Part shown: one piece after another, positions 3,611 to 22,598 of the stretch | Position numbering within the stretch: the first letter of the stretch is position 1 | How the letters are laid out: each line of letters opens with the position of its first letter | Virus record (IMG/VR): IMGVR_UViG_3300032286_000505 | Coordinates: 1 to 64,000 of that record | From: a virus | Taxonomy: Duplodnaviria > Heunggongvirae > Uroviricota > Caudoviricetes | Length of the DNA: 64,000 bases | Reading direction: 5' to 3' (one strand) | The notes under the pieces: generated by a model | Databases searched by the model: none | What the model saw: the letters and a program-made list of their open reading frames with translations, nothing else | Told to the model about the DNA's origin: nothing | Position numbers and translations under genes: made by a program

Positions 3611-3639
3611 GCACAGACAGATTATAAAGGGAAAATAAA

Positions 3640-4740
3640 ATGAGTAAAGAACAATACAATTTATCAAAGCAGACAAACTATCTAAAACGCACAATGTTTT
3701 TAGATCCAGCAGGTCCGGTAACAGTACAAAGATTTGAAGAAGTCAAATATCCTAAGATTGCCAAATATGAAGAATTGGCTCGTGGATTTTTTTGGGTCCC
3801 TGAGGAGATCAGTCTAACCAAAGACAAGATGGATCATAAAGAAGCCAGTGATGCGGTTAAACATATCTTTACCAGCAACCTACTTCGTCAAACAGCATTG
3901 GACAGTATACAAGGTCGTGCACCCAGTCAAGTATTTCAACCTGTTATCAGTATCCCCGAACTAGAAGCACTGGTCAGCAATTGGAGTTTCTTCGAGACTA
4001 ATATTCATAGCAAAAGCTATTCACATATTATTAGGAATGTTTATGGAGTACCTAAAGAAGAGTTTAACAAGATTCACGACACAACTGAAATTGTTGGTAT
4101 GGCTGCTAACATTGGTCGTTACTATGAGGATCTTCATACTCTCAACTGCCGTAAAGAGTTGGGCGAAGAAATTAACACAATGGATCACAAGCGAGCCATT
4201 TGGTTGGCATTACATGCAAGCTACGCTCTGGAGGCCCTTCGCTTTATGGTGAGCTTTGCTACAAGTCTAGCTATGGTAGAGAATCGTATCTATATTGGTA
4301 ACGGCAACATTATCAGTCTTATTTTACAAGACGAACTATTGCATACTGAATGGACTGCTTGGTTGATCAACAATGTAACCAAAGACGATCCAGACTTTCT
4401 ACAATTAGAAAAAGAATGCGAAGCTGAAGTCTATGCAATGTACATGGAGGTTATCCAAGAAGAAAAAGATTGGGCAACCTTCTTGTTTAAGAAAGGTGTA
4501 GTCATTGGACTCAACGCTGCTATTCTATCTAACTTTGTGGACTACACAGCATTTACACGTTTAAAAGATATCGGTATTAAGTACTTGGGTGAGCATCCTA
4601 AGAACAGTCCCATCCCTTGGTTTAACAAGCACGTCAACATCAACAAGAAACAAACAGCTCTGCAGGAAAATGAGTCTACCAATTACGTTATTGGTGTTAT
4701 GTCTGAGAAAGTTGACAAAGAAGAACTCCCATCTCTGTAA
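3640..4740 (+). CDS. nrdB: ribonucleoside-diphosphate reductase class Ia small subunit
   Basis: 366 aa; FFWVPEEISL motif matches the NrdB di-iron and tyrosyl-radical family; lies immediately downstream of nrdA. Confidence 0.85.
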   Translation: MSKEQYNLSKQTNYLKRTMFLDPAGPVTVQRFEEVKYPKIAKYEELARGFFWVPEEISLTKDKMDHKEASDAVKHIFTSNLLRQTALDSIQGRAPSQVFQPVISIPELEALVSNWSFFETNIHSKSYSHIIRNVYGVPKEEFNKIHDTTEIVGMAANIGRYYEDLHTLNCRKELGEEINTMDHKRAIWLALHASYALEALRFMVSFATSLAMVENRIYIGNGNIISLILQDELLHTEWTAWLINNVTKDDPDFLQLEKECEAEVYAMYMEVIQEEKDWATFLFKKGVVIGLNAAILSNFVDYTAFTRLKDIGIKYLGEHPKNSPIPWFNKHVNINKKQTALQENESTNYVIGVMSEKVDKEELPSL

Positions 4741-4751
4741 GGAATTATCAT

Positions 4752-4919
4752 ATGGCAAAAATACAAGAAGAACTCGTAGTAATACGACTAAGCAAATTAA
4801 TTAAAAGTACCGACGACGACACGGAATCGTTGACAAATAAAGATTTTTCTGTTAATCTAGAAGCAATAGTACAAGAACTAGTCGGGGAGACAGTTGTTGT
4901 AGAAATAGAAAAGGAATAA
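4752..4919 (+). CDS. small acidic hypothetical protein (56 aa)
   Basis: Unlisted short ORF MAKIQEELVVIRLSKL... fills the gap between nrdB and glutaredoxin; found by my own reading. Confidence 0.25.
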   Translation: MAKIQEELVVIRLSKLIKSTDDDTESLTNKDFSVNLEAIVQELVGETVVVEIEKE

Positions 4920-4920
4920 A

Positions 4921-5145
4921 ATGAAAGCTATTGTATGGAGTAAGTATCATTGTCCGTATTGTGACCAAGCAAAGGCGTTGTTAAAACAACGAGGTATTGC
5001 ATTCGAAGAAAAGAAAATTGGAGATGGCTACACCAAAGAAGAACTGTTAGAAGCTGTGCCAGCAGCACGTACTGTTCCTCAGATTTTTTTAGATGATAAA
5101 TTAATCGGCGGATTCACGGAGTTAAAAGCTCACTTAAATGGCTAA
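4921..5145 (+). CDS. glutaredoxin (RNR reductant, NrdH/Grx-like)
   Basis: 74 aa; CPYC active site (SKYHCPYCDQAKALL); adjacent to nrdAB; RBS GAAAAGGAATAAA. Confidence 0.8.
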   Translation: MKAIVWSKYHCPYCDQAKALLKQRGIAFEEKKIGDGYTKEELLEAVPAARTVPQIFLDDKLIGGFTELKAHLNG

Positions 5146-5512
5146 TTATTTTTCTACATCGACTTCGTACACAATAGGTACTCAGGGCGCAACCGGATCT
5201 TATGGTACGATTGGTACCGCAGGACAGTTTTTAACAAGTGGGTCTAACGGAACATCTTGGTCCACTGCTAATAATAGCAACATGGCCTTTTCAACTTATT
5301 CCAATAGTGCCACTATGAGCGTTAACGGCAATCTCGACGTAAACGGAAACATAAAGATTAATGGAAAAGATTTGGCAAAGATAATGGAAAAAATTGAAGA
5401 ACGGCTCGCTATACTTCAAGAACCAGATCCTATTAAGTTAGAAAAGTTTCCTGCTTTAAAGAAGGCATACGATCATTACAAATTAATGGAAAAACTCATC
5501 GGTGAGGAATAA
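5138..5512 (+). CDS. hypothetical protein, Gly/Ser/Thr-rich N-terminus with coiled-coil C-terminus
   Basis: ORF overlaps glutaredoxin stop; low-complexity TIGTQGATGSYGTIGTAG repeats. Confidence 0.4.
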   Translation: MANYFSTSTSYTIGTQGATGSYGTIGTAGQFLTSGSNGTSWSTANNSNMAFSTYSNSATMSVNGNLDVNGNIKINGKDLAKIMEKIEERLAILQEPDPIKLEKFPALKKAYDHYKLMEKLIGEE

Positions 5513-5994
5513 TGGAACATAATTCTGCCAAAGGTAGAAACAGCTACGACAGCACTTCAACAGGTGCAGTCGTGGCTTTTTTTAACCGCAATGTTACTGA
5601 GTATCCTACTGAAGCCGGCGGATTTAAGTTTGATCTTGTACCTGTAGAAAAACAAAAAGACATCATGTTGAATGTTGCCAGGATGCACGCTCAACAGGAA
5701 TATGATCGTATCATGGATCTTGTCAGGGTGCTACACAAACAAGCAGACAGTATTAAACGTAGACTAGAAATTACAGATATGGTACATGCTGCCAAATATG
5801 AATTCCAAGTCTATCACGACCAAATATATTGGTTAGTTCACGATACACGAAAAGACCTTGCTAGATTAGTAAGGCATGGTCCCCAAGAATGGTCTACAGG
5901 ACCTCCTGCAGAATATAACTATATCTGCAGGGTCAAGTGGTTAGGTGACCATACATGGATAGAAATAGACAAAGAAGGAAATTATGTTAATTGA
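5512..5994 (+). CDS. hypothetical protein (160 aa)
   Basis: ATGA stop-start overlap with upstream ORF. Confidence 0.4.
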   Translation: MEHNSAKGRNSYDSTSTGAVVAFFNRNVTEYPTEAGGFKFDLVPVEKQKDIMLNVARMHAQQEYDRIMDLVRVLHKQADSIKRRLEITDMVHAAKYEFQVYHDQIYWLVHDTRKDLARLVRHGPQEWSTGPPAEYNYICRVKWLGDHTWIEIDKEGNYVN

Positions 5995-6316: not shown

Positions 6317-7078
6317 ATGGGTATCCCAATTACCACCCCAATGGGGGCAACTGGTGGCGCAGGGCTTTTTACTGCTATCGATAATAGCTTAGAACTTGGT
6401 GCAATATCGGTAGAGTTAGCTACTATCGCTGCGGCCCTTACCACAATAATTACAGTCAACGAAGCGAAATATTGGGGGACCACTGCGTTAGTTGTGCCAG
6501 GCAGTCCAGCAGCTAGTTTAGCTAACATCAGTAGTCAACTTGCAAACTTAAATGACACAATGATTGATATTCAAAAAGGTCAATCGGCGCTTACTGGTGC
6601 AATTGGGGAATTATCCAGTGCAATGAAACAGCAGTCACTAGGCGCAAGCAGATTAGAAACTTTACAGGCAATGGCCGTTGCTGATCAAATTGAAACTAAT
6701 AGATTTCAGAAAACTGAAACCATTGCAGCTCTACAACGAAACGGGATTGCCCCTCAGCCAACTCCGCCAATCATCGACACACTAAAAGAAAAAATATCAC
6801 AAGGTGCATTGCTTAACTTATCTACAGAGTTCCAAACAAGTGTGCAAGGTGTAGCAACCAAATTGATCACTCAACTTAAAGATTACATTGTTAACTCTTC
6901 AATAGTAACATGGGGCCAGGCGCAACTTACCAGCTTCTGGGCGTACCTCGGTCTTAACAAACTTACGGCGGCAGTGGCAGATCCTGCCAAAGCAGCGGCA
7001 GAACTTGCTAAGAAAGCAAGTAGCACAGCAGCTAGAACTGGTGTTTGGGTTCCTCCGGTAATTCCGCCGAACCCTTAA
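6317..7078 (+). CDS. hypothetical Ala-rich protein (253 aa), possibly structural
   Basis: RBS AGAGGAGAATAACTATG; Ala/Leu-rich heptad-like stretches. Confidence 0.4.
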   Translation: MGIPITTPMGATGGAGLFTAIDNSLELGAISVELATIAAALTTIITVNEAKYWGTTALVVPGSPAASLANISSQLANLNDTMIDIQKGQSALTGAIGELSSAMKQQSLGASRLETLQAMAVADQIETNRFQKTETIAALQRNGIAPQPTPPIIDTLKEKISQGALLNLSTEFQTSVQGVATKLITQLKDYIVNSSIVTWGQAQLTSFWAYLGLNKLTAAVADPAKAAAELAKKASSTAARTGVWVPPVIPPNP

Positions 7079-7087
7079 AGGATTAAT

Positions 7088-8002
7088 ATGTCTTACGGCA
7101 GTTCTATACAATCTAGGCTAGGGTTTAATTTTGATACTGCTAAATTCGGATCAGCAATAGATCCTTACGGCGATTTAGATCAACGTCTTGCAAAAGAATC
7201 GTCACTTATTAGAGATAATACTGCAACTGTTTATACAGCAATTGCAACTAGTAATGTTTCTACGTCAACATATTTTAAAAACCCTGTAGCATCAGTTGTA
7301 TCTTTGTTAACATCTATCTCAACAAACTTGTATTTTTCAATATGGAATTACTATGTGCCTATCCTCGATGGTGAAGGCGGATTTACTGCTGATTATATAC
7401 TAAGATCATATGCTAGTGAAATGGATACAAGATATACAGCCATAACAAAAGAATTAACAACTAGCGATACTAAAGCCAACGGAACACCCGAAGAATTTAA
7501 CACTTTTATTAGTCACACAGAACGATTAAGTAATCTTAGACAATCAAACAGTGCTGCACGACCTTCCTTTACTTCTGCTCAATCAGTATTAAAAACTGTT
7601 CAAACATTGGTGTATCAAACCGAAACTACTTCATCGTCTACCGTTGGGGCACTGGGTCTAGGAGCCTTTACTAGTTTGTTTATAGTATCAGATCTCGAAG
7701 GCTATTATACAGCGTTACTTAGTAATGTAAATACTATCAATACACTGCTGGCACCAAGTCCTACAGTTGTTACTCCGGCTATCAGTGCTGCCGTTAATTC
7801 AGCAAATACAAATTTTGCAAATTTATTATCTTTATTAGTTACTAGAAGAACAGGAGATGAGAGTTTCTATCAAAATGCAATGTCAATTACCCAAGACTTA
7901 GGTAAAATATCAACTAATAAAAGTGCAACATCAACATCATCTGCTGTATCGAGTTATCTGATTGATAATTTAATCGGCACCAACGCCTTAAAGAATCTAT
8001 AA
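7088..8002 (+). CDS. hypothetical Ser/Thr-rich protein (304 aa), possibly baseplate or fibre associated
   Basis: RBS AAGGATTAATATG; S/T-rich low-complexity sequence; sits immediately upstream of the PAAR-CHAP gene. Confidence 0.4.
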   Translation: MSYGSSIQSRLGFNFDTAKFGSAIDPYGDLDQRLAKESSLIRDNTATVYTAIATSNVSTSTYFKNPVASVVSLLTSISTNLYFSIWNYYVPILDGEGGFTADYILRSYASEMDTRYTAITKELTTSDTKANGTPEEFNTFISHTERLSNLRQSNSAARPSFTSAQSVLKTVQTLVYQTETTSSSTVGALGLGAFTSLFIVSDLEGYYTALLSNVNTINTLLAPSPTVVTPAISAAVNSANTNFANLLSLLVTRRTGDESFYQNAMSITQDLGKISTNKSATSTSSAVSSYLIDNLIGTNALKNL

Positions 8003-8003: not shown

Positions 8004-8969
8004 ATGACTAATAGAGCAGTAGCTCGTGTTGAGCTTGATGGTACTGCTAGAAGTAAAATTGCCACCGGCGTTAACACTGTCTTTACAAACAACAAAAAAA
8101 CTGCACACGAAGGATCTATTACCCAGCGAGGAAATGCAGTAGTTCAGGGCGCAACCACTGTGTTTGTGGAAAATAAACCCATTGCTCGTGCAGGTGATTT
8201 AGTAGCAAGGGAAGGTGCTATTTTACAAGGGTCAAATAATGTGTTTGCCAGTGATATACTGGCTGCTACTGTAGACGCAAATGCGGTAAGCGTAGTGGCA
8301 TTGAATACACAAGCCTATGTAGGTAATCCTCAGCAGTACAATAACACTGTTGCAGCTCAAAATGGAGTAAAACAGTATTACACTCCTGTGCCAGTAGCTG
8401 TCACTGCTCCTACAGAAAATAGAGACCCTGTAGCATCTTCAAATGATCTTATACCTTGGCTTGAAGCTAGGCTAGAAGAAGCAGATAGGGGATTATGGAG
8501 AGAATCTGGTCAACGTGGCAGGCCTAGTAATCCAAGAATTCTTAATGTTTGGACTGAATTGGGATTTTCGCAATCTAGTCCCTGGAACACTGATCAGACA
8601 GCTTGGTGTGCAGGATTTGTTAATTATGCATTAAAAAATTGCGGATACCGTTGGGCGCCCGAAGCTCTTACCGTTGCTTTTCAAAATAATCCCAAACGAT
8701 GGAAAGCTCAGGTTGTATCTATAAAAGATGCACAGCCGGGCGATATAGTACGCTGGAATTTTAGTCATGTGTCATTTATATATCAGATAGCAGGCGGTAA
8801 GTATTCTTTCGTAGGTGGCAATCAAACTCCTAAAGCAGTAGCAGGTAAAAATAATAATCCAGACGATGGAGACCTAACAGTAGCTTGGGGCGGTCCAACT
8901 GGTAAAACACCTATTTGGACTCCTAGCCAAGGCGGCATTACGATAGTTCTACGTCCAAGTAAAACTTAA
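8004..8969 (+). CDS. PAAR-like repeat domain fused to CHAP-type peptidoglycan hydrolase (putative tail-tip or needle lysin)
   Basis: N-terminus carries repeated G-N/S-x-V-F-x-x-x-K-P-I-A-R-A-G-D units typical of PAAR spikes; C-terminus carries a Cys...His pair (AWCAGFVNYAL ... SHVSFIYQIAGG) typical of CHAP amidase or peptidase. Confidence 0.6.
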   Translation: MTNRAVARVELDGTARSKIATGVNTVFTNNKKTAHEGSITQRGNAVVQGATTVFVENKPIARAGDLVAREGAILQGSNNVFASDILAATVDANAVSVVALNTQAYVGNPQQYNNTVAAQNGVKQYYTPVPVAVTAPTENRDPVASSNDLIPWLEARLEEADRGLWRESGQRGRPSNPRILNVWTELGFSQSSPWNTDQTAWCAGFVNYALKNCGYRWAPEALTVAFQNNPKRWKAQVVSIKDAQPGDIVRWNFSHVSFIYQIAGGKYSFVGGNQTPKAVAGKNNNPDDGDLTVAWGGPTGKTPIWTPSQGGITIVLRPSKT

Positions 8970-9095
8970 TCATAAATAATTTAGACATAAATCTTATGTT
9001 GCTTTCGCAGGGGCAAGCTGCATAGCAGTAAGCAGTAGATCGGTACTACGGGCTCGGCAAAGGCCAAACACACTCTGGGAAGTTTGTCAAAGATA

Positions 9096-9124
9096 TTGAC
9101 ATTTTTGCAAAAAGATGTTTAAAT
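9096..9124 (+). promoter_or_regulatory. sigma70-like promoter (TTGACA-17-TTAAAT)
   Basis: Consensus -35 with 17-bp spacer and 4/6 -10; immediately precedes direct-repeat copy 1. Confidence 0.4.
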
Positions 9125-9175
9125 ATAAGTTAAGACTGTATGAAGTAGACAGAAAAGGATTCAAGACGCGGGGCA
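9125..9175 (+). repeat. approx. 50-bp direct repeat copy 1 (TAAGTTAAGACTGTATGAAGTAGACAGAAAAGGATTCAAGACGCGGG)
   Basis: About 92% identical to 11546..11596; both copies sit just downstream of a sigma70-like promoter. Confidence 0.7.
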
Positions 9176-9229
9176 AAACCGTGTTTCTACCATTTGGATA
9201 ATAGGCCTATTATTTTGGACAAACTGACC

Positions 9230-9258
9230 TTGACAAACTGGTAAAACTTTGCTATAAT
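9230..9258 (+). promoter_or_regulatory. sigma70 promoter TTGACA-17-TATAAT
   Basis: Perfect consensus hexamers with 17-bp spacer, 28 nt upstream of the ORF at 9286. Confidence 0.6.
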
Positions 9259-9285
9259 ATATATACAAACACACAGAGGTGATAA

Positions 9286-10182
9286 ATGCTAAAGTTCAAA
9301 TCCAAAGAGCAAAACTTACTTGTTGAAGCAGGTAAATTGGCCGACGAAAATTCTCGTGATTTTATTCGCGGGGCACTTGGATTAAAGAATAAAAAGGTAG
9401 AAGCAACACGCCATACTATCTTGTCAGGACCACCAGGAGTTGGTAAGACATACGGCACACAAGACGAGTGTAATAAGGCCAAAGTTAAATCTATTCTTAT
9501 TCCTCCAGGAATGACCGACATTGCTCTAACTATTAAACTGGCCTGCGGTGTGTATTCTCTCAAGCAAGGCGAAGAACTTGTTGTTATACTCGACGATGCC
9601 GACGATGTTGTGTTTAACAGTTATGAAACTCTAAACAAGTGGAAAATTGCAATGGCCGATGTTGATTACGACCAGGGCATTATTCCTACTTTTAATCACC
9701 CTGTTAGTATGACTAACACTCTTACTTCTTTACAAAAGCAAGCGGATACTGATCCCAAGCGTCAGGGCATTGTTGATGCTCTTAAAGAGTATATGCCAAG
9801 CGACGGAGTAGGCGTAAGTATTCCTATGGACCGTGTCCGTTTTATTGTTCTGTGTAATTTAGACTTAGAAGATCCAAAAGCATTCCGTGGCAAACTAAAA
9901 TCTGCTATTGGTCCTGTGTTAGACAGGGTTAAGTATAAACGAATGAATGTTGATTGGGAGAAGCAATGGGGCTGGACCGCGTTTGTTCTTGGTGATACAC
10001 AACCATTTGAAGGTCACGATCTTGATGAAGATCAAAAAACAGAACTGATGGGATGGATGTATTCAAACTGGGACAAACTCCGTAGCACATCTTACAGGAC
10101 TGTCCGCCGCCTTGCTGAGGCAATGATCAACGATCCAGAAAATTACATCGACCAGTGGCAACAGGAAATGAAAGGCCATTAA
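9286..10182 (+). CDS. AAA+ family ATPase
   Basis: Walker A ILSGPPGVGKTY; Walker B-like VVILDDADD. Confidence 0.6.
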   Translation: MLKFKSKEQNLLVEAGKLADENSRDFIRGALGLKNKKVEATRHTILSGPPGVGKTYGTQDECNKAKVKSILIPPGMTDIALTIKLACGVYSLKQGEELVVILDDADDVVFNSYETLNKWKIAMADVDYDQGIIPTFNHPVSMTNTLTSLQKQADTDPKRQGIVDALKEYMPSDGVGVSIPMDRVRFIVLCNLDLEDPKAFRGKLKSAIGPVLDRVKYKRMNVDWEKQWGWTAFVLGDTQPFEGHDLDEDQKTELMGWMYSNWDKLRSTSYRTVRRLAEAMINDPENYIDQWQQEMKGH

Positions 10183-10186
10183 AATA

Positions 10187-11020
10187 ATGACTACTAAAAA
10201 GAAATCGTTTAATTCCGAACTTGATGATTTGTTAGCAGGGTTAAAACTTCCATCTGACGAAGATATCAAAAGAGATACCACATCATTAAAAATATCAGAA
10301 AACAATCGAAGAACATGGGCAAACCCTAATGTATCAAATAAAAGATCTTCATCTATTAAACAGGCAAAAAAAGATGCTGGGGCGTGTCCAACTGAATTAT
10401 ATGAAGAGATTTACTTAAACAGTTTTGGATCAGATCGCAGAGATGGGTATGTAGATACAGCAAGAAAATTCTTAAAATCTAAAGGGTTTGACTTTCATAA
10501 AGATCGTGTGTATCACATTATCAATAACGGTCTCAATACTGTTGATGTAGAGACTCACGAACAAAATATTTCTAAGTGGGAAAAAACTTTTGGATTTGGT
10601 GTTTGGGAAATAACTTCGCCGGGTGTTGATCTACTTGAAGAATATGATATTGTATGGGGTGATAATAAGTTTCCACCGAGTGTTATATATCATATTCGAT
10701 TTAATATGTCAACTTGTTCTCCTAAAGAAATTAGAGATTATTTGCTTCCGTGGACTAACGGAGATTATATTAGGTCATCCGACGGTAGTAAAGTAGAAAA
10801 TGGTAGGTATATAAATCTTAGAAAAAAACAATACCCATTCCTTACAGATAAATCTTCTATTACAATTTCTATTTCTGATAGAGATGAAATGTGTGATTGG
10901 TTAAAGAAAAAAATGAAAAGGAAATCTCTTACTATAGGGTATATGTGGCAAATCCTAAATCAAGGAACTGATATAAAGCAGGTAGGGGAACTACAAGGTT
11001 GGTTGATTAGGAAACTATAA
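10187..11020 (+). CDS. hypothetical protein (277 aa)
   Basis: ORF follows the ATPase after a 4-nt gap; no motif recognised. Confidence 0.4.
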   Translation: MTTKKKSFNSELDDLLAGLKLPSDEDIKRDTTSLKISENNRRTWANPNVSNKRSSSIKQAKKDAGACPTELYEEIYLNSFGSDRRDGYVDTARKFLKSKGFDFHKDRVYHIINNGLNTVDVETHEQNISKWEKTFGFGVWEITSPGVDLLEEYDIVWGDNKFPPSVIYHIRFNMSTCSPKEIRDYLLPWTNGDYIRSSDGSKVENGRYINLRKKQYPFLTDKSSITISISDRDEMCDWLKKKMKRKSLTIGYMWQILNQGTDIKQVGELQGWLIRKL

Positions 11021-11522
11021 TAACACTATATCCTTTGTGCGGCTTACCTCTACCAACACATTGGTTATGAAAACTGTTGTAGTTCAAGCCGTTTGATTCA
11101 CACCAAGTTTTAAGAGATTTGATTGTTTCGGTAGTCCCGTCCGGATATACTACTGTAAATTCTTTAGCACTAGGATTTTTTTCGCCTTTGCGGGTGCCTA
11201 GTGCTTTAATTTTTTCCATATTATATTTCATACCTTTGTTCCCACCTTTAGATTGTCTTATAGCCCTGCCCTTTTTTCCTGCCGCAGATAACACTAGTTT
11301 TATATGTTCTTTATTAATAGAAAGTTTAGCAAGACCCTGCCACGCTAGATAATCTTGCCAATGTCCGTATTCTTCATACAATTTACGATGTGCCTCTGCG
11401 TGTTCTTCTGGACTTAGTTCTACTAGATTAGTAGTATCATCAGACCCTCCGCGATGCTTTGGAACAATATGGTGTTTATGTTTCATACATATATTTATGT
11501 CGATCCTAAAAGTTCTTGACAA
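11007..11522 (-). CDS. HNH homing endonuclease
   Basis: HHIVPKHRGGSDDTTNLVELSPEEHAEAHR His-Me finger motif; lone minus-strand gene in a + strand block. Confidence 0.8.
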   Translation of the reverse strand: MSRTFRIDINICMKHKHHIVPKHRGGSDDTTNLVELSPEEHAEAHRKLYEEYGHWQDYLAWQGLAKLSINKEHIKLVLSAAGKKGRAIRQSKGGNKGMKYNMEKIKALGTRKGEKNPSAKEFTVVYPDGTTETIKSLKTWCESNGLNYNSFHNQCVGRGKPHKGYSVIIVS

Positions 11523-11544
11523 GATTTACATATAAATATATAAT
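11516..11544 (+). promoter_or_regulatory. sigma70 promoter TTGACA-17-TATAAT
   Basis: Perfect consensus; fires into direct-repeat copy 2 and a non-coding stretch. Confidence 0.6.
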
Positions 11545-11545
11545 G

Positions 11546-11596
11546 TAAGTTAAGACTGTATGAAGTTGACAGAAACGGATTCAAGACGTGGGTTCG
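11546..11596 (+). repeat. approx. 50-bp direct repeat copy 2
   Basis: Matches 9125..9175; continues into a tRNA-like T-arm GTGGGTTCGACTCCCAC followed by CACCTCCACC. Confidence 0.7.
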
Positions 11597-11821
11597 ACTC
11601 CCACCACCTCCACCTAAGTGTATAAGGTATATTTAGGTGGGGGTGACCAGGCTATCGATTGGGTCAAGAGTACGGAAATGGACAGTCCGGCAATGTAGAA
11701 GCCGTTAGGATTGGGGATTCCCGGTTGCAGAAGCAAAACAAAGTAAATGCAAATGATGAAGCATTTTTGATGGCCGCCTAAATCGGCTATCGGGGCAGCT
11801 ATGCCTAGCAACAGGAAATAG

Positions 11822-11853
11822 CAGAAAGCACCTTCGGGTGCTTTCTTTATTGT
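11822..11853 (+). terminator. Rho-independent terminator (GAAAGCACC-TTCG-GGTGCTTTC followed by TTTATTGTT)
   Basis: 9-bp GC-containing stem, tetraloop, T-rich tail. Confidence 0.6.
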
Positions 11854-11987
11854 TAAAATCTATTGAGCTCATAAAAATATATTAGATAAAAGTTATTAAA
11901 AATGCTTGCTCTATAGTGTAAATAAAAGCATAATATAATTATAGAACACGAAGTTCTCAATATTCATTTCACACACAAGGAGAAGAT

Positions 11988-12548
11988 ATGAAAACAGTTG
12001 GCGATAAATTAGAAAAATTTGCAGTGATCGGTGTAAGGTTTGGTCAGCCAGAAGATGCTTTCTTTACAATTACAGATGAGAGCTTTCCGGGCAAGTGGAA
12101 AGTAATCGTTTACTATCCAAAAGACTTTACATTCGTTTGCCCTACAGAAATTGTAGCCTATGATAAGTTAGCAGCAGACTTTGACGACCGTGATGCAGTA
12201 TTGCTCACTGGTTCAACAGACAACGAGTTTTGTAAAGTAGCTTGGCAAAACGCACATCCAGATCTAAAGAACATTCGTCATAATCAGTTTGCCGACACTG
12301 CTCGTCACCAACCAGGTGAAGAACGTGGCAGTGTAAGTTTGATTGAACAGCTCGGTGTGTTCTATGCTCCGGCAGGTGCCGCACTTCGTGCTACATTCAT
12401 TGTTGACCCAGATAACGTTATTCAGCACGTGACTGTGAACAACTTGAACGTAGGTCGTAGCCCAGAAGAAACACTTCGTGTATTGGACGCATTGCAAACA
12501 GGTGAACTGTGTGCTTGCAACCGCACAGTGGGCGGCGAGACTCTCTAA
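11988..12548 (+). CDS. peroxiredoxin (AhpC/TSA 2-Cys family)
   Basis: FTFVCPTEI peroxidatic-Cys motif; RBS AAGGAGAAGATATG. Confidence 0.85.
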   Translation: MKTVGDKLEKFAVIGVRFGQPEDAFFTITDESFPGKWKVIVYYPKDFTFVCPTEIVAYDKLAADFDDRDAVLLTGSTDNEFCKVAWQNAHPDLKNIRHNQFADTARHQPGEERGSVSLIEQLGVFYAPAGAALRATFIVDPDNVIQHVTVNNLNVGRSPEETLRVLDALQTGELCACNRTVGGETL

Positions 12549-12745
12549 TGCTAAAATTCTTCAGTCGAGGCGTAGAAACTCTGCGCCAGCCTGATCGAAA
12601 TCCCAGATGTTATGAATTAACTGACCAAGAGCGACTTAATAAAATTCGTGAATGGAACAATCGTAACATCTGGAACGATCTTTCACTTACATACGAAGAC
12701 GCACTTGCTGTAGATATGCCAAAAAATAGATACTACGGAGCATAA
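12509..12745 (+). CDS. hypothetical protein (78 aa)
   Basis: ORF overlaps the end of the peroxiredoxin gene; weak support. Confidence 0.3.
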   Translation: MCLQPHSGRRDSLMLKFFSRGVETLRQPDRNPRCYELTDQERLNKIREWNNRNIWNDLSLTYEDALAVDMPKNRYYGA

Positions 12746-13384
12746 ATGTTAGAAACAATTTGTGAAGTTCTTGAAGACGCTTACCAGCGCAACTGGATTA
12801 CCAGCCGTGATGGTAATGTAAGTATTCGTCACCACGACCGCGATCACTTTTATATCACTCCCTCGGGTGTGCGTAAGCAGACTCTACAACCAGATCAGTT
12901 CAAGAAGATTGGTCTAATGTTCCAGCCCAATGACCTAAATCAGGATTGGTTCGATATGCCCTACACTGACATCAGTGCCAATCTCAAACCGTCTGGAGAG
13001 ATTCCTCTACATTTTGGACTACAACGAAAAATGGGACAACACAGCACAGATGTTCGAGTTGTAGTGCATGTTCATCCTACTTACTGTATCGCAGCCATGC
13101 ACGCCGGTATTGATTTGAGTACTATTAGCGATGCGTTTCCAGAACTTAATCGTTATACACGAGTTGCACCCAATGTAGGTGACGTTGCTCCCATCAGTCA
13201 AGAGCTTGCAGATCAATGTCATAAAGCATTACAACTAGATGATCAAGGAAATATTGCTTATGACATAGTGGGCATCAAAGGACACGGGGTTGTGGCTATT
13301 GATACTAGCCCCTGGCGTGCTTACGAGCATATTGAGCGCTTAGAGCATATTTGTAAGATTGTATTAGCTTCGGGGAAATATTAA
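12746..13384 (+). CDS. class II aldolase/adducin-family protein
   Basis: N-terminal GNVSIRHHDRDHFYITPSGV pattern, HVHPTYCIAAMHAG metal-binding-like region. Confidence 0.5.
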   Translation: MLETICEVLEDAYQRNWITSRDGNVSIRHHDRDHFYITPSGVRKQTLQPDQFKKIGLMFQPNDLNQDWFDMPYTDISANLKPSGEIPLHFGLQRKMGQHSTDVRVVVHVHPTYCIAAMHAGIDLSTISDAFPELNRYTRVAPNVGDVAPISQELADQCHKALQLDDQGNIAYDIVGIKGHGVVAIDTSPWRAYEHIERLEHICKIVLASGKY

Positions 13385-13385
13385 A

Positions 13386-13799
13386 ATGTTAGAATGTTTG
13401 ATTATAGGTGATAGTATTGCCGTTGGTACTGCTATGGCTCGCAAAGAATGTGTGAGCCATGCTCGAGGCGGTTGGAACAGTTGGCAATGGAACAAAGATT
13501 ACTTAGAAAAAGTAAAAGGCAATCCTGCCAAAACTGTGATCATCAGTCTGGGTGCTAATGACCATGCGGGCGTAAAAACTGAACGAGAACTTCGTAAAAT
13601 GCGAGAAGCAATTACAGCTCACAGGGTATTTTGGATTGATCCGGGAAAGGATCGAAAGCCAGTACCGCACGATGCTATAGTTCGTATTGCACAAGAATAC
13701 GGAGACACAATATTACCGAGACCCAAGGATCATATGAGTGCAGATGGCATTCATCCTACAGGTCGAGGATATAGAATTTTAGGAGATCAAACACGATGA
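13386..13799 (+). CDS. SGNH/GDSL-type hydrolase
   Basis: N-terminal IIGDSIAVG catalytic Ser block; GANDH block. Confidence 0.5.
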   Translation: MLECLIIGDSIAVGTAMARKECVSHARGGWNSWQWNKDYLEKVKGNPAKTVIISLGANDHAGVKTERELRKMREAITAHRVFWIDPGKDRKPVPHDAIVRIAQEYGDTILPRPKDHMSADGIHPTGRGYRILGDQTR

Positions 13800-14338
13800 C
13801 ACAATGGGTAGATATGGTCAAAGAGGCATTACCTGAATATGCCAAAGATACAAAGTTAAATCTTGACGCAGTCATCAAGCGTTCAACACTAGATCCTGTA
13901 GAAGCAGAAGCATGTGCTTTGGCTGCTCTAGTAGCAACAGGCAATGGCAAATTACTTGCTTGGGTTCTAGCAAACACAGATTTAAATATTAAGACAGACA
14001 CAGTAGACAATGTTAAAGAGCGTGATGCCGCAATGACGGCTGCAAGCATTATGGCACAGAATAACGTATGGTATCCCTATGTTGAAATGGCAGAAGATCC
14101 GGCATTAAAAGGATTGCCAGCACAGTTGCGTATGAACGCTATTGCCAGCCACGGTGGTACAACCAAAGCTCGTTTTGAAGCATATAGTTTAGCCGCTAGT
14201 ATTGTTGGCAAGTGTCACTTCTGCGTTAAGGCACACTATGACACGCTAAAGAAGGAAGGCTATACTGTGGAACAACTTCGTGACATTGGACGTATTGCAT
14301 CTGTTATAAATTCAGTTGCTAAAGTATTAAACAGTTGA
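13796..14338 (+). CDS. AhpD-like alkylhydroperoxidase / carboxymuconolactone decarboxylase family protein
   Basis: CHFCVKAH matches the AhpD C-x-x-C-x3-H redox motif; sits in the same block as the AhpC-type peroxiredoxin. Confidence 0.6.
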   Translation: MTQWVDMVKEALPEYAKDTKLNLDAVIKRSTLDPVEAEACALAALVATGNGKLLAWVLANTDLNIKTDTVDNVKERDAAMTAASIMAQNNVWYPYVEMAEDPALKGLPAQLRMNAIASHGGTTKARFEAYSLAASIVGKCHFCVKAHYDTLKKEGYTVEQLRDIGRIASVINSVAKVLNS

Positions 14339-14346
14339 TGTAAATC

Positions 14347-14378
14347 ACCAAAGGGTCTTGATAGACCCTTTGTTTACG
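14347..14378 (+). terminator. putative intrinsic terminator (CAAAGGGTC-TTGATA-GACCCTTTG then TTTACG)
   Basis: 9-bp stem directly after the AhpD-like gene; weak T-tail. Confidence 0.4.
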
Positions 14379-14392
14379 TATATAATATACAG

Positions 14393-14629
14393 ATGAAAAA
14401 ACATTTAATAAAACTATTACCAATTATTGGATTGTTGTTGACAGGATGTGCTACACCTGATGTAGAAAAGAGTGTTAGCCGTGATAAAACAATGAACGAT
14501 ATGGCAAAAACTGCGTTGATTGGCGAGATGCTTAACAGCGCGGATCCCGCAGTAAGATTGGAAGGCTCTAGAATTGCCAAAGATTTTATCGTGCCAAAAC
14601 GCAGTTTGATTGATGTTTTGGTAAAATAA
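14393..14629 (+). CDS. small lipoprotein (78 aa)
   Basis: Signal peptide with lipobox LLTGC. Confidence 0.4.
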   Translation: MKKHLIKLLPIIGLLLTGCATPDVEKSVSRDKTMNDMAKTALIGEMLNSADPAVRLEGSRIAKDFIVPKRSLIDVLVK

Positions 14630-14634
14630 TCGAT

Positions 14635-14663
14635 TTACAACAGGAAAGAAAACCTGTATAATA
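14635..14663 (+). promoter_or_regulatory. sigma70-like promoter TTTACA-17-TATAAT
   Basis: 5/6 -35, perfect -10, 17-bp spacer; 55 nt upstream of the nadM-like gene. Confidence 0.5.
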
Positions 14664-14718
14664 AATACATACAGCAAAGAGATAGACTCTGAGCGTATAT
14701 TATTCAAAGGATTTTTGA

Positions 14719-15738
14719 ATGTCAAAGAAATATCACACCCTAGTGCTCATTGGTAGGTTTCAACCGTTTCATTCAGCACACCTTGAGATTGTAAAACGTG
14801 CTACTGCCCTGTGCGAACAGTTAATCATCATCACTGGTTCAGCGGCTCAACCGCGCACCTACAAGAACCCATTTACATCAGCTGAACGTGCGGGCATGAT
14901 CAAATCAGCTACTCGTGGGTTGAATATGCAGATCTACGTTGAACCCAATGTGGACACTATCTATAACGACCAAGCCTGGGCCGTGCGTATCCAAGGTATT
15001 GTCAGCAAGTATGTAGTCCTTGGTACCAAAACTGGCATCATTGGCCACAAGAAAGACGACAGCAGCTTCTATTTGGACATGTTCCCGCAGTGGGGATACG
15101 AAAACGTAGAACTGATTGAGTTCCTTAGTGCCGTAGACATTCGTGACCTGTACTTCAAGCGTGATGTCAACATGAAGTTCATCCGTGGTGTAGTGCCAGA
15201 AACTGTGTTTGACTTTTTGGAAGAATTCCGCCATCATGCTGAATATGAACAGATCATACGTGAGCGTGAGTTTGTTGCCAACTACAAAAAACAGTATGCC
15301 TCGCTACCTTATCCTCCTATCTTTAGTACTGCTGATTCGATTGTAATCTGTAGTGGACACGTACTAATGATCAAGCGCCGTGCTGAGCCTGGCAAGGGTC
15401 TTTGGGCACTGCCCGGTGGCTATGTCAATGCTAACACAGATAAAAGCGTAGAGGATGCTGCCATACGAGAGTTACGTGAAGAAACAATGATTCGGGTACC
15501 TGCTCCAGTGTTGCGCGGTAGCATTGTACGTAGTAAGGTGTTTGATGCTGTTGACCGTAGTCCACGTGGACGTATCATTACCCACGCATTCCACATTCAA
15601 TTGCCAGATGGTGAACTGCCCAAGGTAAAGGGATCAGACGATGCTGAAAAGGCACGTTGGGTTCCTATCGCAGAGGTGCGTAGCGAAGAATGCTTCGAAG
15701 ACCATTATGAAATCATCCAACATTTTCTAGGAGCTTAA
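14719..15738 (+). CDS. nadM: bifunctional NMN adenylyltransferase / Nudix ADP-ribose pyrophosphatase (NadM-Nudix)
   Basis: N-terminal nucleotidyltransferase GRFQPFHSAHL (H-x-G-H class); C-terminal Nudix box GGYVNANTDKSVEDAAIRELREETMI. Confidence 0.8.
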   Translation: MSKKYHTLVLIGRFQPFHSAHLEIVKRATALCEQLIIITGSAAQPRTYKNPFTSAERAGMIKSATRGLNMQIYVEPNVDTIYNDQAWAVRIQGIVSKYVVLGTKTGIIGHKKDDSSFYLDMFPQWGYENVELIEFLSAVDIRDLYFKRDVNMKFIRGVVPETVFDFLEEFRHHAEYEQIIREREFVANYKKQYASLPYPPIFSTADSIVICSGHVLMIKRRAEPGKGLWALPGGYVNANTDKSVEDAAIRELREETMIRVPAPVLRGSIVRSKVFDAVDRSPRGRIITHAFHIQLPDGELPKVKGSDDAEKARWVPIAEVRSEECFEDHYEIIQHFLGA

Positions 15739-15739
15739 T

Positions 15740-15961
15740 ATGAACGAACGAATTCGAGAACTTATCAACCAAATGAATCAAGCAGGTCTTCCATATGGCG
15801 ATAACGCAATGACCGTCACAGACCGAGACTTGGAATATTTTGCCGAGTTGATTGTTCAGGAATGTGCCGAATTGTGTATTAATGAAGGTCGGACACACGA
15901 CCAATGGTTTGGGTCACATTGCGCTATCACAGTAAAAGAACATTTCGGAGTTGAAGAATGA
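15740..15961 (+). CDS. hypothetical protein (73 aa)
   Basis: Tightly packed ORF. Confidence 0.35.
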   Translation: MNERIRELINQMNQAGLPYGDNAMTVTDRDLEYFAELIVQECAELCINEGRTHDQWFGSHCAITVKEHFGVEE

Positions 15962-16149
15962 AAAAAGATACAAATACAGATACTGCAATTGCAGAATTCC
16001 TGGCCAGAGGCGGAGTTATTCAACAGGCAGCATACCGAGAAAGCGGTAGAGTAGAAGGTGCTCCCCCGTCGCCTTGGGGTGCTAAAAAAGCCGGCCGTAC
16101 TCCAAAAGCGGACTTGCCGCCCGAAGATTTGCACGAGGACGAAGAATGA
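15958..16149 (+). CDS. hypothetical protein (63 aa), acidic C-terminus
   Basis: Overlapping stop-start with its neighbours. Confidence 0.3.
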   Translation: MKKDTNTDTAIAEFLARGGVIQQAAYRESGRVEGAPPSPWGAKKAGRTPKADLPPEDLHEDEE

Positions 16150-16652
16150 AACACTATACAAACACAGACAATCCGGTTGACTTTCCCCAGTCAGCATTGA
16201 AACACACCAAGGGTAATCTACTAGATCTAGCAGAAGCAGGTGAATTCGATATTATTGTACAGGGATGTAACTGCTTCAACACAATGGGCGGAGGAATTGC
16301 CCGAGAGATCCGTGAACGATATCCAATGGCGGCAGAAGTTGATAACGAAACTCTAAAGGGCGACTATTGCAAGTTGGGCAATTTTACCACTGCCTTTACT
16401 GGAAAGTTTTTGATTGTCAACGCCTATACACAGTACAATATGAGTCAAGGTAACGATGTGTTTGAGTATACTGCTTTCTTGTTGATTCTGGAAAAATTGT
16501 TATACGCTTACGGCGATAAACGAATTGGCTTGCCCTACATTGGTATGGGTCTGGCAGGTGGCGATCGTGAGACAATCATTCCAATGATTGAAGAATTTGC
16601 CTACCGTGTTGCCGCTAAAGGTGGAACAGTAACTTTGGTAGAATTTGGTTAA
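16146..16652 (+). CDS. macro domain protein (ADP-ribose binding or processing)
   Basis: GCNCFNTMGGGIAREIRERYP resembles the macro-domain glycine-rich ADP-ribose-binding loop. Confidence 0.6.
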   Translation: MKHYTNTDNPVDFPQSALKHTKGNLLDLAEAGEFDIIVQGCNCFNTMGGGIAREIRERYPMAAEVDNETLKGDYCKLGNFTTAFTGKFLIVNAYTQYNMSQGNDVFEYTAFLLILEKLLYAYGDKRIGLPYIGMGLAGGDRETIIPMIEEFAYRVAAKGGTVTLVEFG

Positions 16653-16659
16653 GAATAGT

Positions 16660-16688
16660 TTGACACAGGAATAGGCCTGTGTTATACT
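16660..16688 (+). promoter_or_regulatory. sigma70 promoter TTGACA-17-TATACT with a 7-bp inverted repeat in the spacer
   Basis: ACACAGG...CCTGTGT hairpin or operator lies between the hexamers. Confidence 0.55.
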
Positions 16689-16741
16689 GTAAACAAGTCC
16701 AAGCGATAGACGCCTGGCATTTTAAATAAAGGAACTTTATT

Positions 16742-18139
16742 ATGAAACTCGCAAAAAACATCATCCTGAACACCGACTCATATAAAGTGAGTATGGATCG
16801 CCAATATCCAGTAGGTACTACCGGTGTATATTCATATATTGAGAGCCGCGGAGGCCGATACGATCAAACAGTATTCTTCGGACTACAGGCTTTTATCAAA
16901 GAGTACCTGCTGGAACCAATCACTCAAGCAGACATCGACATTGCTGAAGAAATCCTTACCGCTCACGGTGAGCCTTTCAACCGATCAGGATGGCAGTACA
17001 TTCTTGACAAACACATGGGATACCTCCCAGTTGTCATCAAATCTGTCCCCGAAGGCACAGTCGTCCCTGTTAAAAATGTACTTGCAACCATTGAAAACAC
17101 AGACCCCGAGTGCTTCTGGCTCACAACATGGCTAGAAACAGCCTTGCTTCGTGCAGTGTGGTACGGTACTACTGTGGCAACACAAAGCTGGACAATTAAA
17201 CAAGTCATTCTTGACTATCTGGAGAAAACTGGTGATCCTAGCACTATCGATTTTAAGTTGCATGACTTTGGCGCTCGGGGCGTATCTAGCCTTGAATCTG
17301 CTGCCATTGGGGGCGCGGCCCACTTGGTCAACTTTATGGGGACCGATACTATCAGTGGTATCCTACACGCTCGTGAGTTTTATAACGCTGGTATTGCTGG
17401 CTTCTCAATTCCTGCTGCCGAACACAGCACCATTACAAGCTGGGGACGAGATGGAGAAGTCGATGCCTACCGCAACATGCTCGATCAGTTCGCCAAGCCC
17501 GGAAGCATTGTTGCTGTCGTGTCTGATTCCTATGACATCTTCAACGCCGCCCGAACCCTCTGGGGAGAAGAACTTCGGCAACAAGTTATTGACAGCGGTG
17601 CAACTGTAGTCATTCGTCCAGATAGTGGAGATCCACTTACTATCAACCAACAGTTGATTGAGATCCTTGGAGAGAAATTTGGTTACACCAAAAACGCCAA
17701 AGGCTTCAAAGTACTTAACAATGTGCGTTTGATCCAAGGCGACGGTGTAAACGAATTGAGTATCCGTAGTATCCTCGGTGGGTTCATGGCCATGGGCTGG
17801 AGTGCTGATAACATTGCATTTGGTATGGGCGGCGCATTGCTCCAGCAATTGGATCGTGATACACTGAAGTTTGCAATGAAGTGTTCTAGTGCAGAAGTCA
17901 ACGGTCGTTGGATCGATGTACAAAAAGATCCGATTACTGACAGCGGCAAGAAGTCTAAAGCAGGTCGCGTAACATTGTGGCAAAGTGGACGCGAGTATTT
18001 TAGCTCTGTTGACAAGCCAAAGACCTGGACAGACTACGGCGTTGGTGACGCAACTGAAGTTCTTGAAGAAGTCTACCGTGACGGTAAGCTGATTAAAGAA
18101 ATCGACTTTGCTACTGTTCGAGCTAACGCTCGCAAATAA
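16742..18139 (+). CDS. nadV: nicotinamide phosphoribosyltransferase (NAMPT/NadV)
   Basis: 465 aa; VVIRPDSGDP and SDSYDIF motifs of the NAMPT/PncB-type phosphoribosyltransferase fold. Confidence 0.8.
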   Translation: MKLAKNIILNTDSYKVSMDRQYPVGTTGVYSYIESRGGRYDQTVFFGLQAFIKEYLLEPITQADIDIAEEILTAHGEPFNRSGWQYILDKHMGYLPVVIKSVPEGTVVPVKNVLATIENTDPECFWLTTWLETALLRAVWYGTTVATQSWTIKQVILDYLEKTGDPSTIDFKLHDFGARGVSSLESAAIGGAAHLVNFMGTDTISGILHAREFYNAGIAGFSIPAAEHSTITSWGRDGEVDAYRNMLDQFAKPGSIVAVVSDSYDIFNAARTLWGEELRQQVIDSGATVVIRPDSGDPLTINQQLIEILGEKFGYTKNAKGFKVLNNVRLIQGDGVNELSIRSILGGFMAMGWSADNIAFGMGGALLQQLDRDTLKFAMKCSSAEVNGRWIDVQKDPITDSGKKSKAGRVTLWQSGREYFSSVDKPKTWTDYGVGDATEVLEEVYRDGKLIKEIDFATVRANARK

Positions 18140-18142
18140 AAC

Positions 18143-18176
18143 TAACAAGGGGATTTACAACCCCTTGTTTTTATTG
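18143..18176 (+). terminator. Rho-independent terminator (CAAGGGGATTTACAACCCCTTG then TTTTTATT)
   Basis: Strong stem-loop with U-tract directly after the NAMPT stop. Confidence 0.7.
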
Positions 18177-18182
18177 TATAAT
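18169..18182 (+). promoter_or_regulatory. extended -10 promoter (TGTATAAT)
   Basis: TGn plus TATAAT directly after the terminator, upstream of the ORF at 18213. Confidence 0.35.
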
Positions 18183-18212
18183 TTATACATAACAACACAC
18201 TGAAAGACAGCA

Positions 18213-19295: not shown

Positions 19296-19315
19296 TCAGT
19301 ATATAGCTTGAGGAG

Positions 19316-19908: not shown

Positions 19909-19914
19909 TTGGAT

Positions 19915-19948
19915 AAACCAGTTCTTGACAGGACTGGTTTTTTCTTGT
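19915..19948 (+). terminator. intrinsic terminator hairpin AACCAGTTCTTGACAGGACTGGTT then TTTTCTT
   Basis: Stem-loop with T-tract; the loop carries the -35 of the next promoter. Confidence 0.55.
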
Positions 19949-19954: not shown

Positions 19955-19987
19955 TATACATACAGACACACTACTGAAAGGTAAAAA

Positions 19988-22597: not shown

Positions 22598-22598
22598 A

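Follow-up and report, generated by a model that had tools for sequence, protein, structure and literature searches.

In a 64,000-nt stretch of phage DNA (positions 1 to 64,000 of IMG/VR record IMGVR_UViG_3300032286_000505, Caudoviricetes; hereafter, the window), a free-standing HNH homing endonuclease gene lies back to back with a complete gene for a two-piece transfer-messenger RNA (tmRNA), and an orphan 5' fragment of another tmRNA allele lies upstream of both. The closest relatives carry the tmRNA gene without the bracketed segment, and relatives of the endonuclease recur beside tmRNA genes of several forms. We consider it probable that an HNH homing cassette invaded a permuted tmRNA gene, so that a displaced piece now lies on its upstream side and an intact gene on its downstream side, and that an ATPase module was inserted later. 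An initial annotation, made from the sequence alone, had described the locus as a promoter-proximal direct repeat of about 50 bp (about 92% identity) that brackets ATPase and HNH genes and whose second copy heads a candidate noncoding RNA of 300 nt.

A predicted two-piece tmRNA gene at the downstream repeat copy

The candidate RNA of about 300 nt, at about 11547-11849, is evidently a complete phage-encoded two-piece (circularly permuted) tmRNA gene. Its features are the following:

11516-11544, plus strand: tmRNA promoter, TTGACA-17-TATAAT, 12/12 consensus match
11547-11614, plus strand: acceptor piece, which includes repeat copy 2 (to 11592), as placed by Rfam alignments, ARAGORN and the predicted fold
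11588-11604, plus strand: T arm, GTGGG-TTCGACT-CCCAC
11605-11611, plus strand: acceptor 3' strand CACCTCC, followed by ACC at 11612-11614
11615-11638, plus strand: intervening segment of 24 nt, whose self-pairing extends the acceptor helix
11639-11853, plus strand: coding piece, with the 5' acceptor strand GGGGGTG (11639-11645), the tag frame and the terminator
11749-11781, plus strand: tag frame, GCA AAT GAT GAA GCA TTT TTG ATG GCC GCC TAA, encoding ANDEAFLMAA
11823-11846 and the following T run, plus strand: intrinsic terminator

ARAGORN reports a permuted tmRNA ("tmRNA*") at 11523-11872 with the tag ANDEAFLMAA. The Rfam scan that the initial annotation had proposed returned full-length matches to two models: beta_tmRNA (RF01850), with 121.3 bits against a gathering score of 84 (E = 1e-37; model positions 1-331 of 331), and tmRNA_permuted (RF04321), with 104.5 bits against 47 (model positions 1-213 of 213). 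The order of the parts is permuted, the T arm and 3' acceptor strand preceding the tag frame and the 5' acceptor strand. The acceptor strands form a 7-bp stem, GGGGGTG/CACCTCC, with G3.U70 at G11641/T11609 and the discriminator at A11612. The tag frame starts with an alanine resume codon and ends with hydrophobic residues plus AA; the tags of relatives are ANDEQFALAA or ANDSQFALAA. A similarly compact intervening segment is found in four other phage contigs (L021, L026, L077, and L056).

These results recast several of the first claims. Repeat copy 2, which begins 2 nt past the promoter, had been taken for a transcript 5' leader; according to Rfam and ARAGORN, it would instead supply the 5' portion of the mature acceptor piece, in the strand that base-pairs to the coding piece. 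The promoter falls under the unpaired 5' stretch of the beta_tmRNA model. The T-arm-like hairpin is present, as a genuine tmRNA T arm and not a relic hinting at tRNA-targeted integration, and the "13-bp hairpin" reported after it is part of a continuous 19-bp helix (11605-11645; fold z = -6.1) made up of the acceptor stem and 12 bp of intervening-segment pairing. The strong intrinsic terminator was confirmed. The statement that no open reading frame (ORF) exceeds 20 aa did not hold, as a 40-codon TTG ORF occupies 11659-11781, its last 10 codons being the tmRNA tag. A structured RNA gene of this length with tRNA-like parts does end at the terminator, but it is not a new noncoding RNA; it passes every sequence-level membership test of the permuted family and is thereby already explained.

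In two-piece tmRNAs, the precursor is processed at its tRNA-like ends and the pieces remain base-paired; alanyl-tRNA synthetase charges the molecule via G3.U70, and trans-translation proceeds with SmpB. Here, the promoter at 11516 would drive a single precursor from which tRNA-processing enzymes would take out the short intervening hairpin. The acceptor and coding pieces, held by base-pairing and charged with alanine via G3.U70, would then rescue stalled ribosomes with SmpB, appending the tag ANDEAFLMAA. The SmpB used is presumably that of the host, because a search of the window with an Escherichia coli SmpB probe found no SmpB gene (best E = 0.33).

The two-piece class comprises tmRNAs of Alpha- and Betaproteobacteria, one cyanobacterial lineage, and aquatic phages (Rfam RF01850, RF01849, and RF04321, the last from a 2025 tmRNA database paper, PMC11915505). 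Phage-borne members are documented, mostly in aquatic phages such as the OM43 phage Melnitz (PMC9004378). The window gene resembles the class in its order of acceptor, intervening and coding parts, its T arm, its 7-bp stem with G3.U70, its ANDE...AA tag and terminator, and in scores well above gathering. It differs in that it is phage-borne with no close cultured relative, has a very compact intervening segment, encodes ACC-T rather than ACCA, so that CCA completion would be needed, and has an orphan fragment of another allele next to it and no SmpB found in the window. A megablast search with 8900-12100 gave no match among deposited phages, i.e., no cultured reference. The T-arm/acceptor 25-mer, scanned against a genome collection, matches standard tmRNA 3' ends in many unrelated phyla and is uninformative on the host.

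An orphan fragment of a second tmRNA allele

Three features make up the upstream end of the bracketed segment:

9096-9124, plus strand: displaced-fragment promoter, with -35 TTGACA at 9096-9101, a 17-nt spacer and a -10-like TTAAAT at 9119-9124
9127-9173, plus strand: repeat copy 1, the orphan 5' part of a type-B acceptor piece, ending at the T-stem 5' strand GACGCGGGG
9174-9209, plus strand: junction filler, with two weak hairpins at 9164-9186 and 9196-9215 (fold z = -1.8)

The direct repeat is much as first described: 51 nt long (9122-9172 and 11542-11592), identical at 47 of 51 positions (92%), with a spacing of 2420 nt. It is far beyond chance. Its 44-nt core, with 3 or fewer mismatches, occurs at two sites only in the 64 kb, where shuffles lead one to expect 0, and nhmmer with the acceptor piece as query found the same two sites and no others in the window. 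A test for further copies of the 50-bp leader, also proposed at the outset, thus gave none beyond these two.

Each copy does lie just downstream of a promoter, a perfect one at copy 2 and TTGACA-17-TTAAAT at copy 1. A consensus promoter scan did not flag 9096-9124; the same TTAAAT -10 element is also used by the intact tmRNA genes of contigs L020, L043, and L048, and the 9096 promoter together with the fragment is 88% identical to the promoter and 5' end of the intact genes of L020 and L048.

The two copies come from different alleles. Copy 1 (nhmmer match, 9126-9174) is 98% identical to intact type-B acceptor pieces over 52-57 nt, and in every comparison the homology to intact genes ends at 9173, after GACGCGGGG; type-B alleles free of the HNH gene read ...GCCCGCCAGGTCCACCATAAA... 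/ ...GACGCGGGGGCAGTGCCCGCCAGGTCCACCATAAA... at this place. Copy 2 and the remainder of its gene are 92.7% identical to the type-A gene of L021 over 248 nt. The T stem is GCGGG (type B) in copy 1 versus GTGGG (type A) in copy 2. The window has no second coding piece with the type-B partner strand GGGCCTG, its sole coding piece carrying GGGGGTG. Because of the type-B identity, the stop at 9173 and the missing coding piece, copy 1 is best read as an orphan fragment of a different tmRNA allele and not as an in-situ duplicate. A simple tandem duplication of the promoter-leader in place, followed by unrelated gene insertions, would yield two direct copies at this distance and identity, yet we give it hardly any credence: besides the T stems, the -10 elements (TTAAAT and TATAAT) differ and the promoter spacers are unrelated, and copy 1 is closer to the type-B alleles of other phages (98%) than to copy 2 (only 92%).

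Another alternative is that copy 1 is a functional duplicate, its promoter and first ~50 nt having been kept either to give the ATPase operon a strong promoter and leader or to make a small RNA that would modulate tmRNA assembly by pairing with the coding piece. It has lost all sequence 3' of the T stem but retains a perfect -35 element and all residues involved in pairing to the coding piece, and in contigs L041 and L062 a forward endonuclease ORF directly follows the truncated fragment, which would be its leader. Still, we regard a retained function as improbable. The ATPase gene has its own perfect promoter 57 nt past the fragment, and ATPase relatives elsewhere have no such leader. The fragments of L087 and L106 have diverged in the pairing part, and a recent event would explain the perfect conservation equally well. 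Moreover, the fragment alone folds unremarkably (z = -0.12), a value on which we also rejected copy 1 as a specially stable RNA.

We also considered whether the tail at 9174-9228 is a decayed acceptor end. This was unconvincing after multiple testing (best z of 52 comparisons, 4.1; median, 0.15), and an abrupt junction at 9173 appears to be the simpler reading.

Close relatives lack the bracketed segment

A 20-mer that the two copies share is matched exactly by 82 IMG/VR contigs (L001-L082), nearly all of which have an acceptor piece and then a coding piece 21-1000 nt downstream. None of these 82 tmRNA loci contains relatives of the ATPase, 277-aa or HNH genes. By nrdA and nrdB, which correspond to window ORFs at 1268-4740 (best tblastn match of NrdB among deposited phages, 63% identity), the nearest relatives are L008, L009, L052, L064, and L032, with 83-90% aa identity. 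Each has one complete tmRNA gene, and no fragment, ATPase, 277-aa ORF or HNH gene was found there. In L008, L009, and L052, the tmRNA gene directly follows a conserved block that is also present in the window, just upstream of the fragment:

8999-9091 (~95 nt), plus strand: conserved non-coding block, ~80% identical to blocks directly abutting the tmRNA start in 16 contigs

The block has stops in all frames and no Rfam match. A closing stem of 11 bp and three hairpins are predicted, with compensatory changes in two pairs. It seems to mark the ancestral position of the tmRNA 5' end and may be a tmRNA precursor leader or a separate small RNA. Because close relatives have a lone tmRNA gene without the 9.2-11.5 kb segment, we read the segment as an insertion. 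The comparison with related genomes suggested in the initial annotation thus upheld its idea of an insertion associated with a homing endonuclease, though not that of a duplication in place.

The window is a mosaic at the tmRNA gene: its left side is like L008, L009, and L064, and its right side (tmRNA, AhpC, aldolase, GDSL) is like L021, L031, and L077. Some 13 kb of accessory genes at 11900-25400 (an AhpC-type peroxiredoxin, a class II aldolase, a GDSL lipase, and others) part the tmRNA gene from homologs of the genes that directly follow it in L008, L009, L052, L023, and L015. The tmRNA gene therefore marks the edge of a hypervariable region.

The HNH cassette has moved horizontally

The right-hand part of the segment consists of the following:

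11007-11489, minus strand: HNH homing endonuclease gene, free-standing and oriented divergently to the tmRNA gene, with a 14-nt overlap between its 3' end and the 277-aa ORF
11490-11521, no strand: intergenic end of the cassette; homology to L087 extends through the -35 box of the tmRNA promoter

The product matches Pfam HNH with 21.6 bits (cut-off, 21.4) and phrog_655 ("homing endonuclease") with E = 2.6e-13, and it has the motif HKHHIVPKHRGGSDDTTNLVELSPEEHAEAH. Among deposited phages, there are only distant relatives (no more than 35% identity), which carry the annotation of Mob-type homing endonucleases from T4-like phages. Much closer ones came from IMG/VR and metagenomes, with 94-98% aa identity in L087, L103, and L111 (94% for L087 and 98% for L111). 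By blastn, window positions 11020-11521 align with L087 6467-5966 at 91% nucleotide identity, while the nrdA and nrdB products of L087 are only 41% and 39% identical to those of the window. This disparity indicates that the cassette moved horizontally.

Along the tmRNA strand, L087 has a promoter, a type-B acceptor piece that runs through the T arm to CAGGT, and then immediately the stop codon of the reverse-strand HNH gene; beyond the HNH gene lie a promoter and two small ORFs, followed by a complete compact tmRNA gene. L111 has the identical junction, ...GCCCGCCAGGT|TAGATAACAC..., behind unrelated upstream genes. Between the two contigs, identity is 100% over the 30 nt beside the junction and ~60% in the rest of the fragment, and there is none further upstream. 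Such a gradient is the pattern expected of break-repair copying with co-conversion. In the window, copy 1 agrees with the allele at this junction as far as GACGCGGGG, and homology to L087 and L111 on the HNH side stops at the HNH stop codon (11020).

The HNH gene is a separate ORF on the opposite strand and lies inside neither an intron nor an intein. Searches for group I and II introns gave no match at the gathering score in the window or in L033, L041, L062, L067, and L087. We therefore rejected a group I intron in the T loop: there is no Intron_gpI match, and the downstream tmRNA gene is complete, with nothing to splice.

HNH and GIY-YIG genes recur beside phage tmRNA genes

Full-length HNH relatives (42-98% aa identity) were collected from IMG/VR and metagenomes, and their surroundings were searched for tmRNA sequences by ARAGORN, nhmmer and Rfam. 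The HNH gene has a tmRNA gene or a piece of one as its neighbor in 14 of the 17 assessable lineages (the window, L111, L087/L103, L106, L088/L107, L108, L091/L110, L090/L135, L112/L113, L092/L114, L116, L117/L118, L119, and L122); four further lineages, whose contigs end 175 nt or less from the HNH start, were excluded. The tmRNA gene is usually divergent and within tens of nucleotides. It may be of the beta-like permuted, alpha-like permuted or standard one-piece form.

Not all neighbors are divergent. In L117/L118 (HNH, 4576-5061; tmRNA, 5063-5382), L122, and L116, the HNH relative, with 42-47% identity, is on the same strand immediately upstream of the tmRNA gene, which is one-piece in L117/L118 and L122 and permuted in L116. 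As one-piece and permuted tmRNAs both have HNH neighbors, the association crosses tmRNA gene forms.

In seven lineages, including the window, a complete or truncated copy of the acceptor piece lies beyond the 3' end of the HNH gene (z, 4-24 in the six others). It is truncated in the T loop in L106 and in the acceptor strand in L087/L103 and L111, and it is complete through CCA and the first intervening nucleotides in L108, L110, and L090/L135. In these last three lineages, the upstream piece has a T arm, acceptor strand, CCA and its own promoter, so there are two acceptor pieces per coding piece. By its sequence, the upstream piece of L090 could pair with the coding piece via a single U.G wobble.

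A second endonuclease family shows the same layout. Three different GIY-YIG/Seg-like ORFs lie behind acceptor pieces broken at the T stem or T loop, all within the same 25-nt stretch:

L033, ~2990-3950: GIY-YIG insertion
L041, 4518-5270: GIY-YIG insertion
L062, 8519-9450: GIY-YIG insertion, also in L037 and L051

At these loci, a second acceptor piece (5'-trimmed in L062) and then the coding piece follow. The architecture appears to be that of the HNH case with another nuclease family, and the insertions seem independent. At L067 (11345-11990), a degenerate acceptor fragment is followed by a 164-aa ORF without a Pfam family and then by a better-preserved acceptor piece with its own promoter. 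The hairpin of that fragment, ACACG...CGTGT, resembles ACGCGG...CCGTGT of the window, and the locus ends before any coding piece; it looks like a window-like layout without a recognizable endonuclease.

These loci bear on the main rival to HNH entry, namely a recombination joint formed without endonuclease targeting. The conserved 5' part of the tmRNA gene would be a hot spot of homologous or illegitimate recombination between co-infecting phages, with the fragment as a by-product and the HNH and ATPase genes as passengers. The mosaic flanks of the window agree with this scenario, as do the hypervariable region downstream of the tmRNA gene, the small ORFs that the intervening segment also acquires and the non-endonuclease ORF behind the truncated fragment of L067. 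However, it leaves unexplained why one HNH clade lies within tens of nucleotides of three tmRNA forms (14 of 17 lineages), why two unrelated backgrounds share an identical junction with an identity gradient and why three GIY-YIG genes break the same 25-nt stretch. On balance, we find it unlikely, at roughly one chance in seven.

An ATPase module of separate origin

Between the fragment and the HNH gene lies a second unit:

9210-11020, plus strand: ATPase/277-aa module, with its own promoter, the P-loop ATPase gene and the 277-aa ORF
9230-9258, plus strand: module promoter, perfect consensus, 57 nt downstream of the fragment
9286-10182, plus strand: P-loop ATPase gene, with Walker A GPPGVGKT and Walker B-like VVILDDAD
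10187-11020, plus strand: 277-aa ORF without a family match

The three genes that the initial annotation placed between the copies are all there, but its label "AAA" for the first is not established beyond the P-loop motifs. The ATPase matches phrog_1250 (unknown function), the large subunit of RFC below threshold (E = 0.009) and PDB entries at E of 0.3 or more; there is no Pfam hit at E of 0.01 or less and no Pfam AAA match. "P-loop ATPase" would be the safe label, "AAA" going beyond the evidence. We found no support for a defense system in the ATPase and 277-aa pair, with no PADLOC hits and only sub-threshold P-loop similarities in NCBIfam and PDB.

ATPase relatives with 70-96% aa identity occur in L083-L086, where the surroundings differ and do not include a tmRNA. 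The DNA of the window is homologous to these contigs in a stretch that starts at about 9210/9229, by the ATPase promoter, and ends at 10278, inside the next gene. The module is absent from L087, L111, and all 82 tmRNA loci. The bracketed segment is thus composite, joining the HNH cassette to an ATPase/277-aa module that moves separately. In L084, the ATPase gene is flanked upstream by a Seg-like GIY-YIG ORF (5358-5945) and downstream by a 272-aa ORF (6848-7666) with NUMOD-like basic repeats by sequence reading; the ATPase module may itself travel with endonuclease genes.

The contents of the segment also speak to an island of the integrase type, in which a site-specific recombinase would have integrated into the tmRNA gene, regenerating the gene and displacing a fragment. 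As described for the Islander database (PMC4383910), islands in tRNA and tmRNA genes leave just this geometry: a direct repeat of part of the target brackets the insert, one copy being the intact, regenerated gene and the other an orphan fragment. We nonetheless judge such an origin very improbable. The segment and its neighborhood contain no integrase or recombinase gene in the window, L087, L090, L106 or L111, and no recombinase families were detected among the ORFs between the repeats with Pfam, PHROGs, NCBIfam and PADLOC. The junction varies by lineage (intervening segment, acceptor strand or T loop), and it is the promoter-proximal rather than the 3' end that has been displaced. Compared with such islands, then, the window lacks an integrase, has its 5' part displaced because the gene is permuted and is a lytic-type phage genome, not a bacterial chromosome.

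A proposed history of the locus

The favored history, HNH entry into a permuted tmRNA gene with a later ATPase insertion, would have had two steps. In the first, the lineage of the window would have come to have an arrangement like that of L111. The cassette would have entered near the T arm/acceptor end, its target being the T-arm/acceptor/intervening region, and the scar at 9096-9173 would be what HNH entry displaced of the other allele: its promoter and the initial ~47 nt of its acceptor piece. With the cassette back to back with a complete tmRNA gene, tmRNA function would be retained. The displaced fragment may serve as the upstream homology arm for copying into a new genome by double-strand-break repair, the intact tmRNA gene and the displaced front end being the two flanks that supply repair homology. 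In the second step, the ATPase/277-aa module would have been inserted between the T stem of the fragment and the HNH stop codon, with a loss of ~20 nt. Three elements of this history are inferred: cleavage of tmRNA genes by the HNH enzyme, to which the junction shared by two backgrounds, its identity gradient and the recurrent tmRNA association point indirectly; the succession of the two steps; and the use of the fragment as a homology arm.

Several observations weigh against this history. The left junction of the window (9173) differs from that of L087 and L111, which calls for a second event and a small deletion; comparisons gave no convincing source for the 36-nt filler at 9174-9209; and no right-hand end of the cassette could be defined with respect to the gene first targeted. 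In L107, L112, and L114, the HNH gene lies beside a tmRNA gene and no fragment was detected there. The intact copy of L090/L135 equals the displaced copy at the presumed target, so that self-immunity is not accounted for, and there are type-A tmRNA genes without HNH (L021, L026, and L077).

A further reading, which we consider possible at somewhat more than one chance in three, is that the HNH clade is a dedicated homing element of tmRNA genes. It would stay harmless by a route of its own, without an intron or intein: by bringing along a promoter together with a substitute acceptor piece, or else an entire compact tmRNA gene, it would leave the permuted tmRNA gene that it enters functional. 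The displaced resident acceptor piece would become the next upstream homology arm. If so, it would mirror integrase islands that carry the 3' end of their tRNA target. As a corollary, endonuclease pressure may drive the diversity of the T loop (GGCAGTG in most alleles) and of the intervening segment.

Comparison with known homing systems

The free-standing endonucleases of T4-like phages (HNH Mob and GIY-YIG Seg; intronless homing) are similar to the window cassette in that a small HNH gene with its own expression signals lies between conserved sequences. The distribution is patchy in close relatives, genes are near-identical across genomes with ~40% core identity, and there is a co-conversion-like gradient at the junction. 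Unlike in the T4 systems, the associated, putative target is an RNA gene, and a partial duplicate of its promoter-proximal part flanks the cassette while the gene stays intact.

Group I introns with LAGLIDADG endonuclease genes are known from the T loop of tmRNA genes (PMC11915505), likewise a homing endonuclease gene at the T-loop region. Here, in contrast, no intron was found in the window or the five related loci, the endonucleases are of the HNH and GIY-YIG types and often on the opposite strand, and duplication rather than splicing would preserve the gene. In our literature search, which was incomplete, endonuclease genes in tmRNA genes turned up only inside such T-loop introns, and no account was found that links free-standing HNH or GIY-YIG genes to the tmRNA genes of phages; the HNH-tmRNA association looks undescribed.

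The tmRNA itself is one more phage-borne two-piece tmRNA of a known class. Its context is more useful: a free-standing HNH clade and several independent GIY-YIG genes are tied to phage tmRNA genes and leave orphan acceptor fragments, and the tmRNA locus is a recombination and insertion hot spot among these large aquatic phages. If the proposed cleavage specificity is true, an RNA gene outside introns would join the targets of phage homing endonucleases, the partial tmRNA hits that confuse phage genome annotation would be explained and there would be natural enzymes that recognize a very conserved sequence of 20-30 bp.

Variation in the phage tmRNA family and other RNA genes

In this family of phage permuted tmRNA genes, the first ~45 nt are almost invariant, and alleles vary at the T arm, acceptor stem and intervening segment. 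Acceptor stems co-vary (CAGGTCC/GGGCCTG, CATCTCC/GGGGATG, CACCTCC/GGGGGTG, and CTGGTCC/GGGCCAG) with G3.U70 invariant, which argues for working genes. The near-universal T loop is TTCRAnT. Of the 75 permuted phage genes whose T arm is clean, 53 (e.g., L001, L009, L014, and L020) have GGCAGTG or GGCAGTT as the T loop, and these genes retain a coding piece as well as an acceptor stem that co-varies and preserves G3.U70.

The intervening segment ranges from 21 to 370 nt among L009, L002, L045, L061/L022, L018, L032, L053/L071, and L011. ORFs of 37-119 aa fill the segments of at least 118 nt, and their ribosome-binding site comes directly after the CCA end. Because the long segments hold ORFs, protein genes appear to be nested inside tmRNA precursors.

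The window also has 23 clustered tRNA genes at 50.5-63.5 kb (50498-63484). Large tRNA clusters in two related contigs harbor GOLLD RNAs (RF02032, ~200 bits; none at threshold in the window), each with an embedded tRNA: L033 at 7073-7534 on the minus strand and L067 at 2968-3431 on the plus strand.

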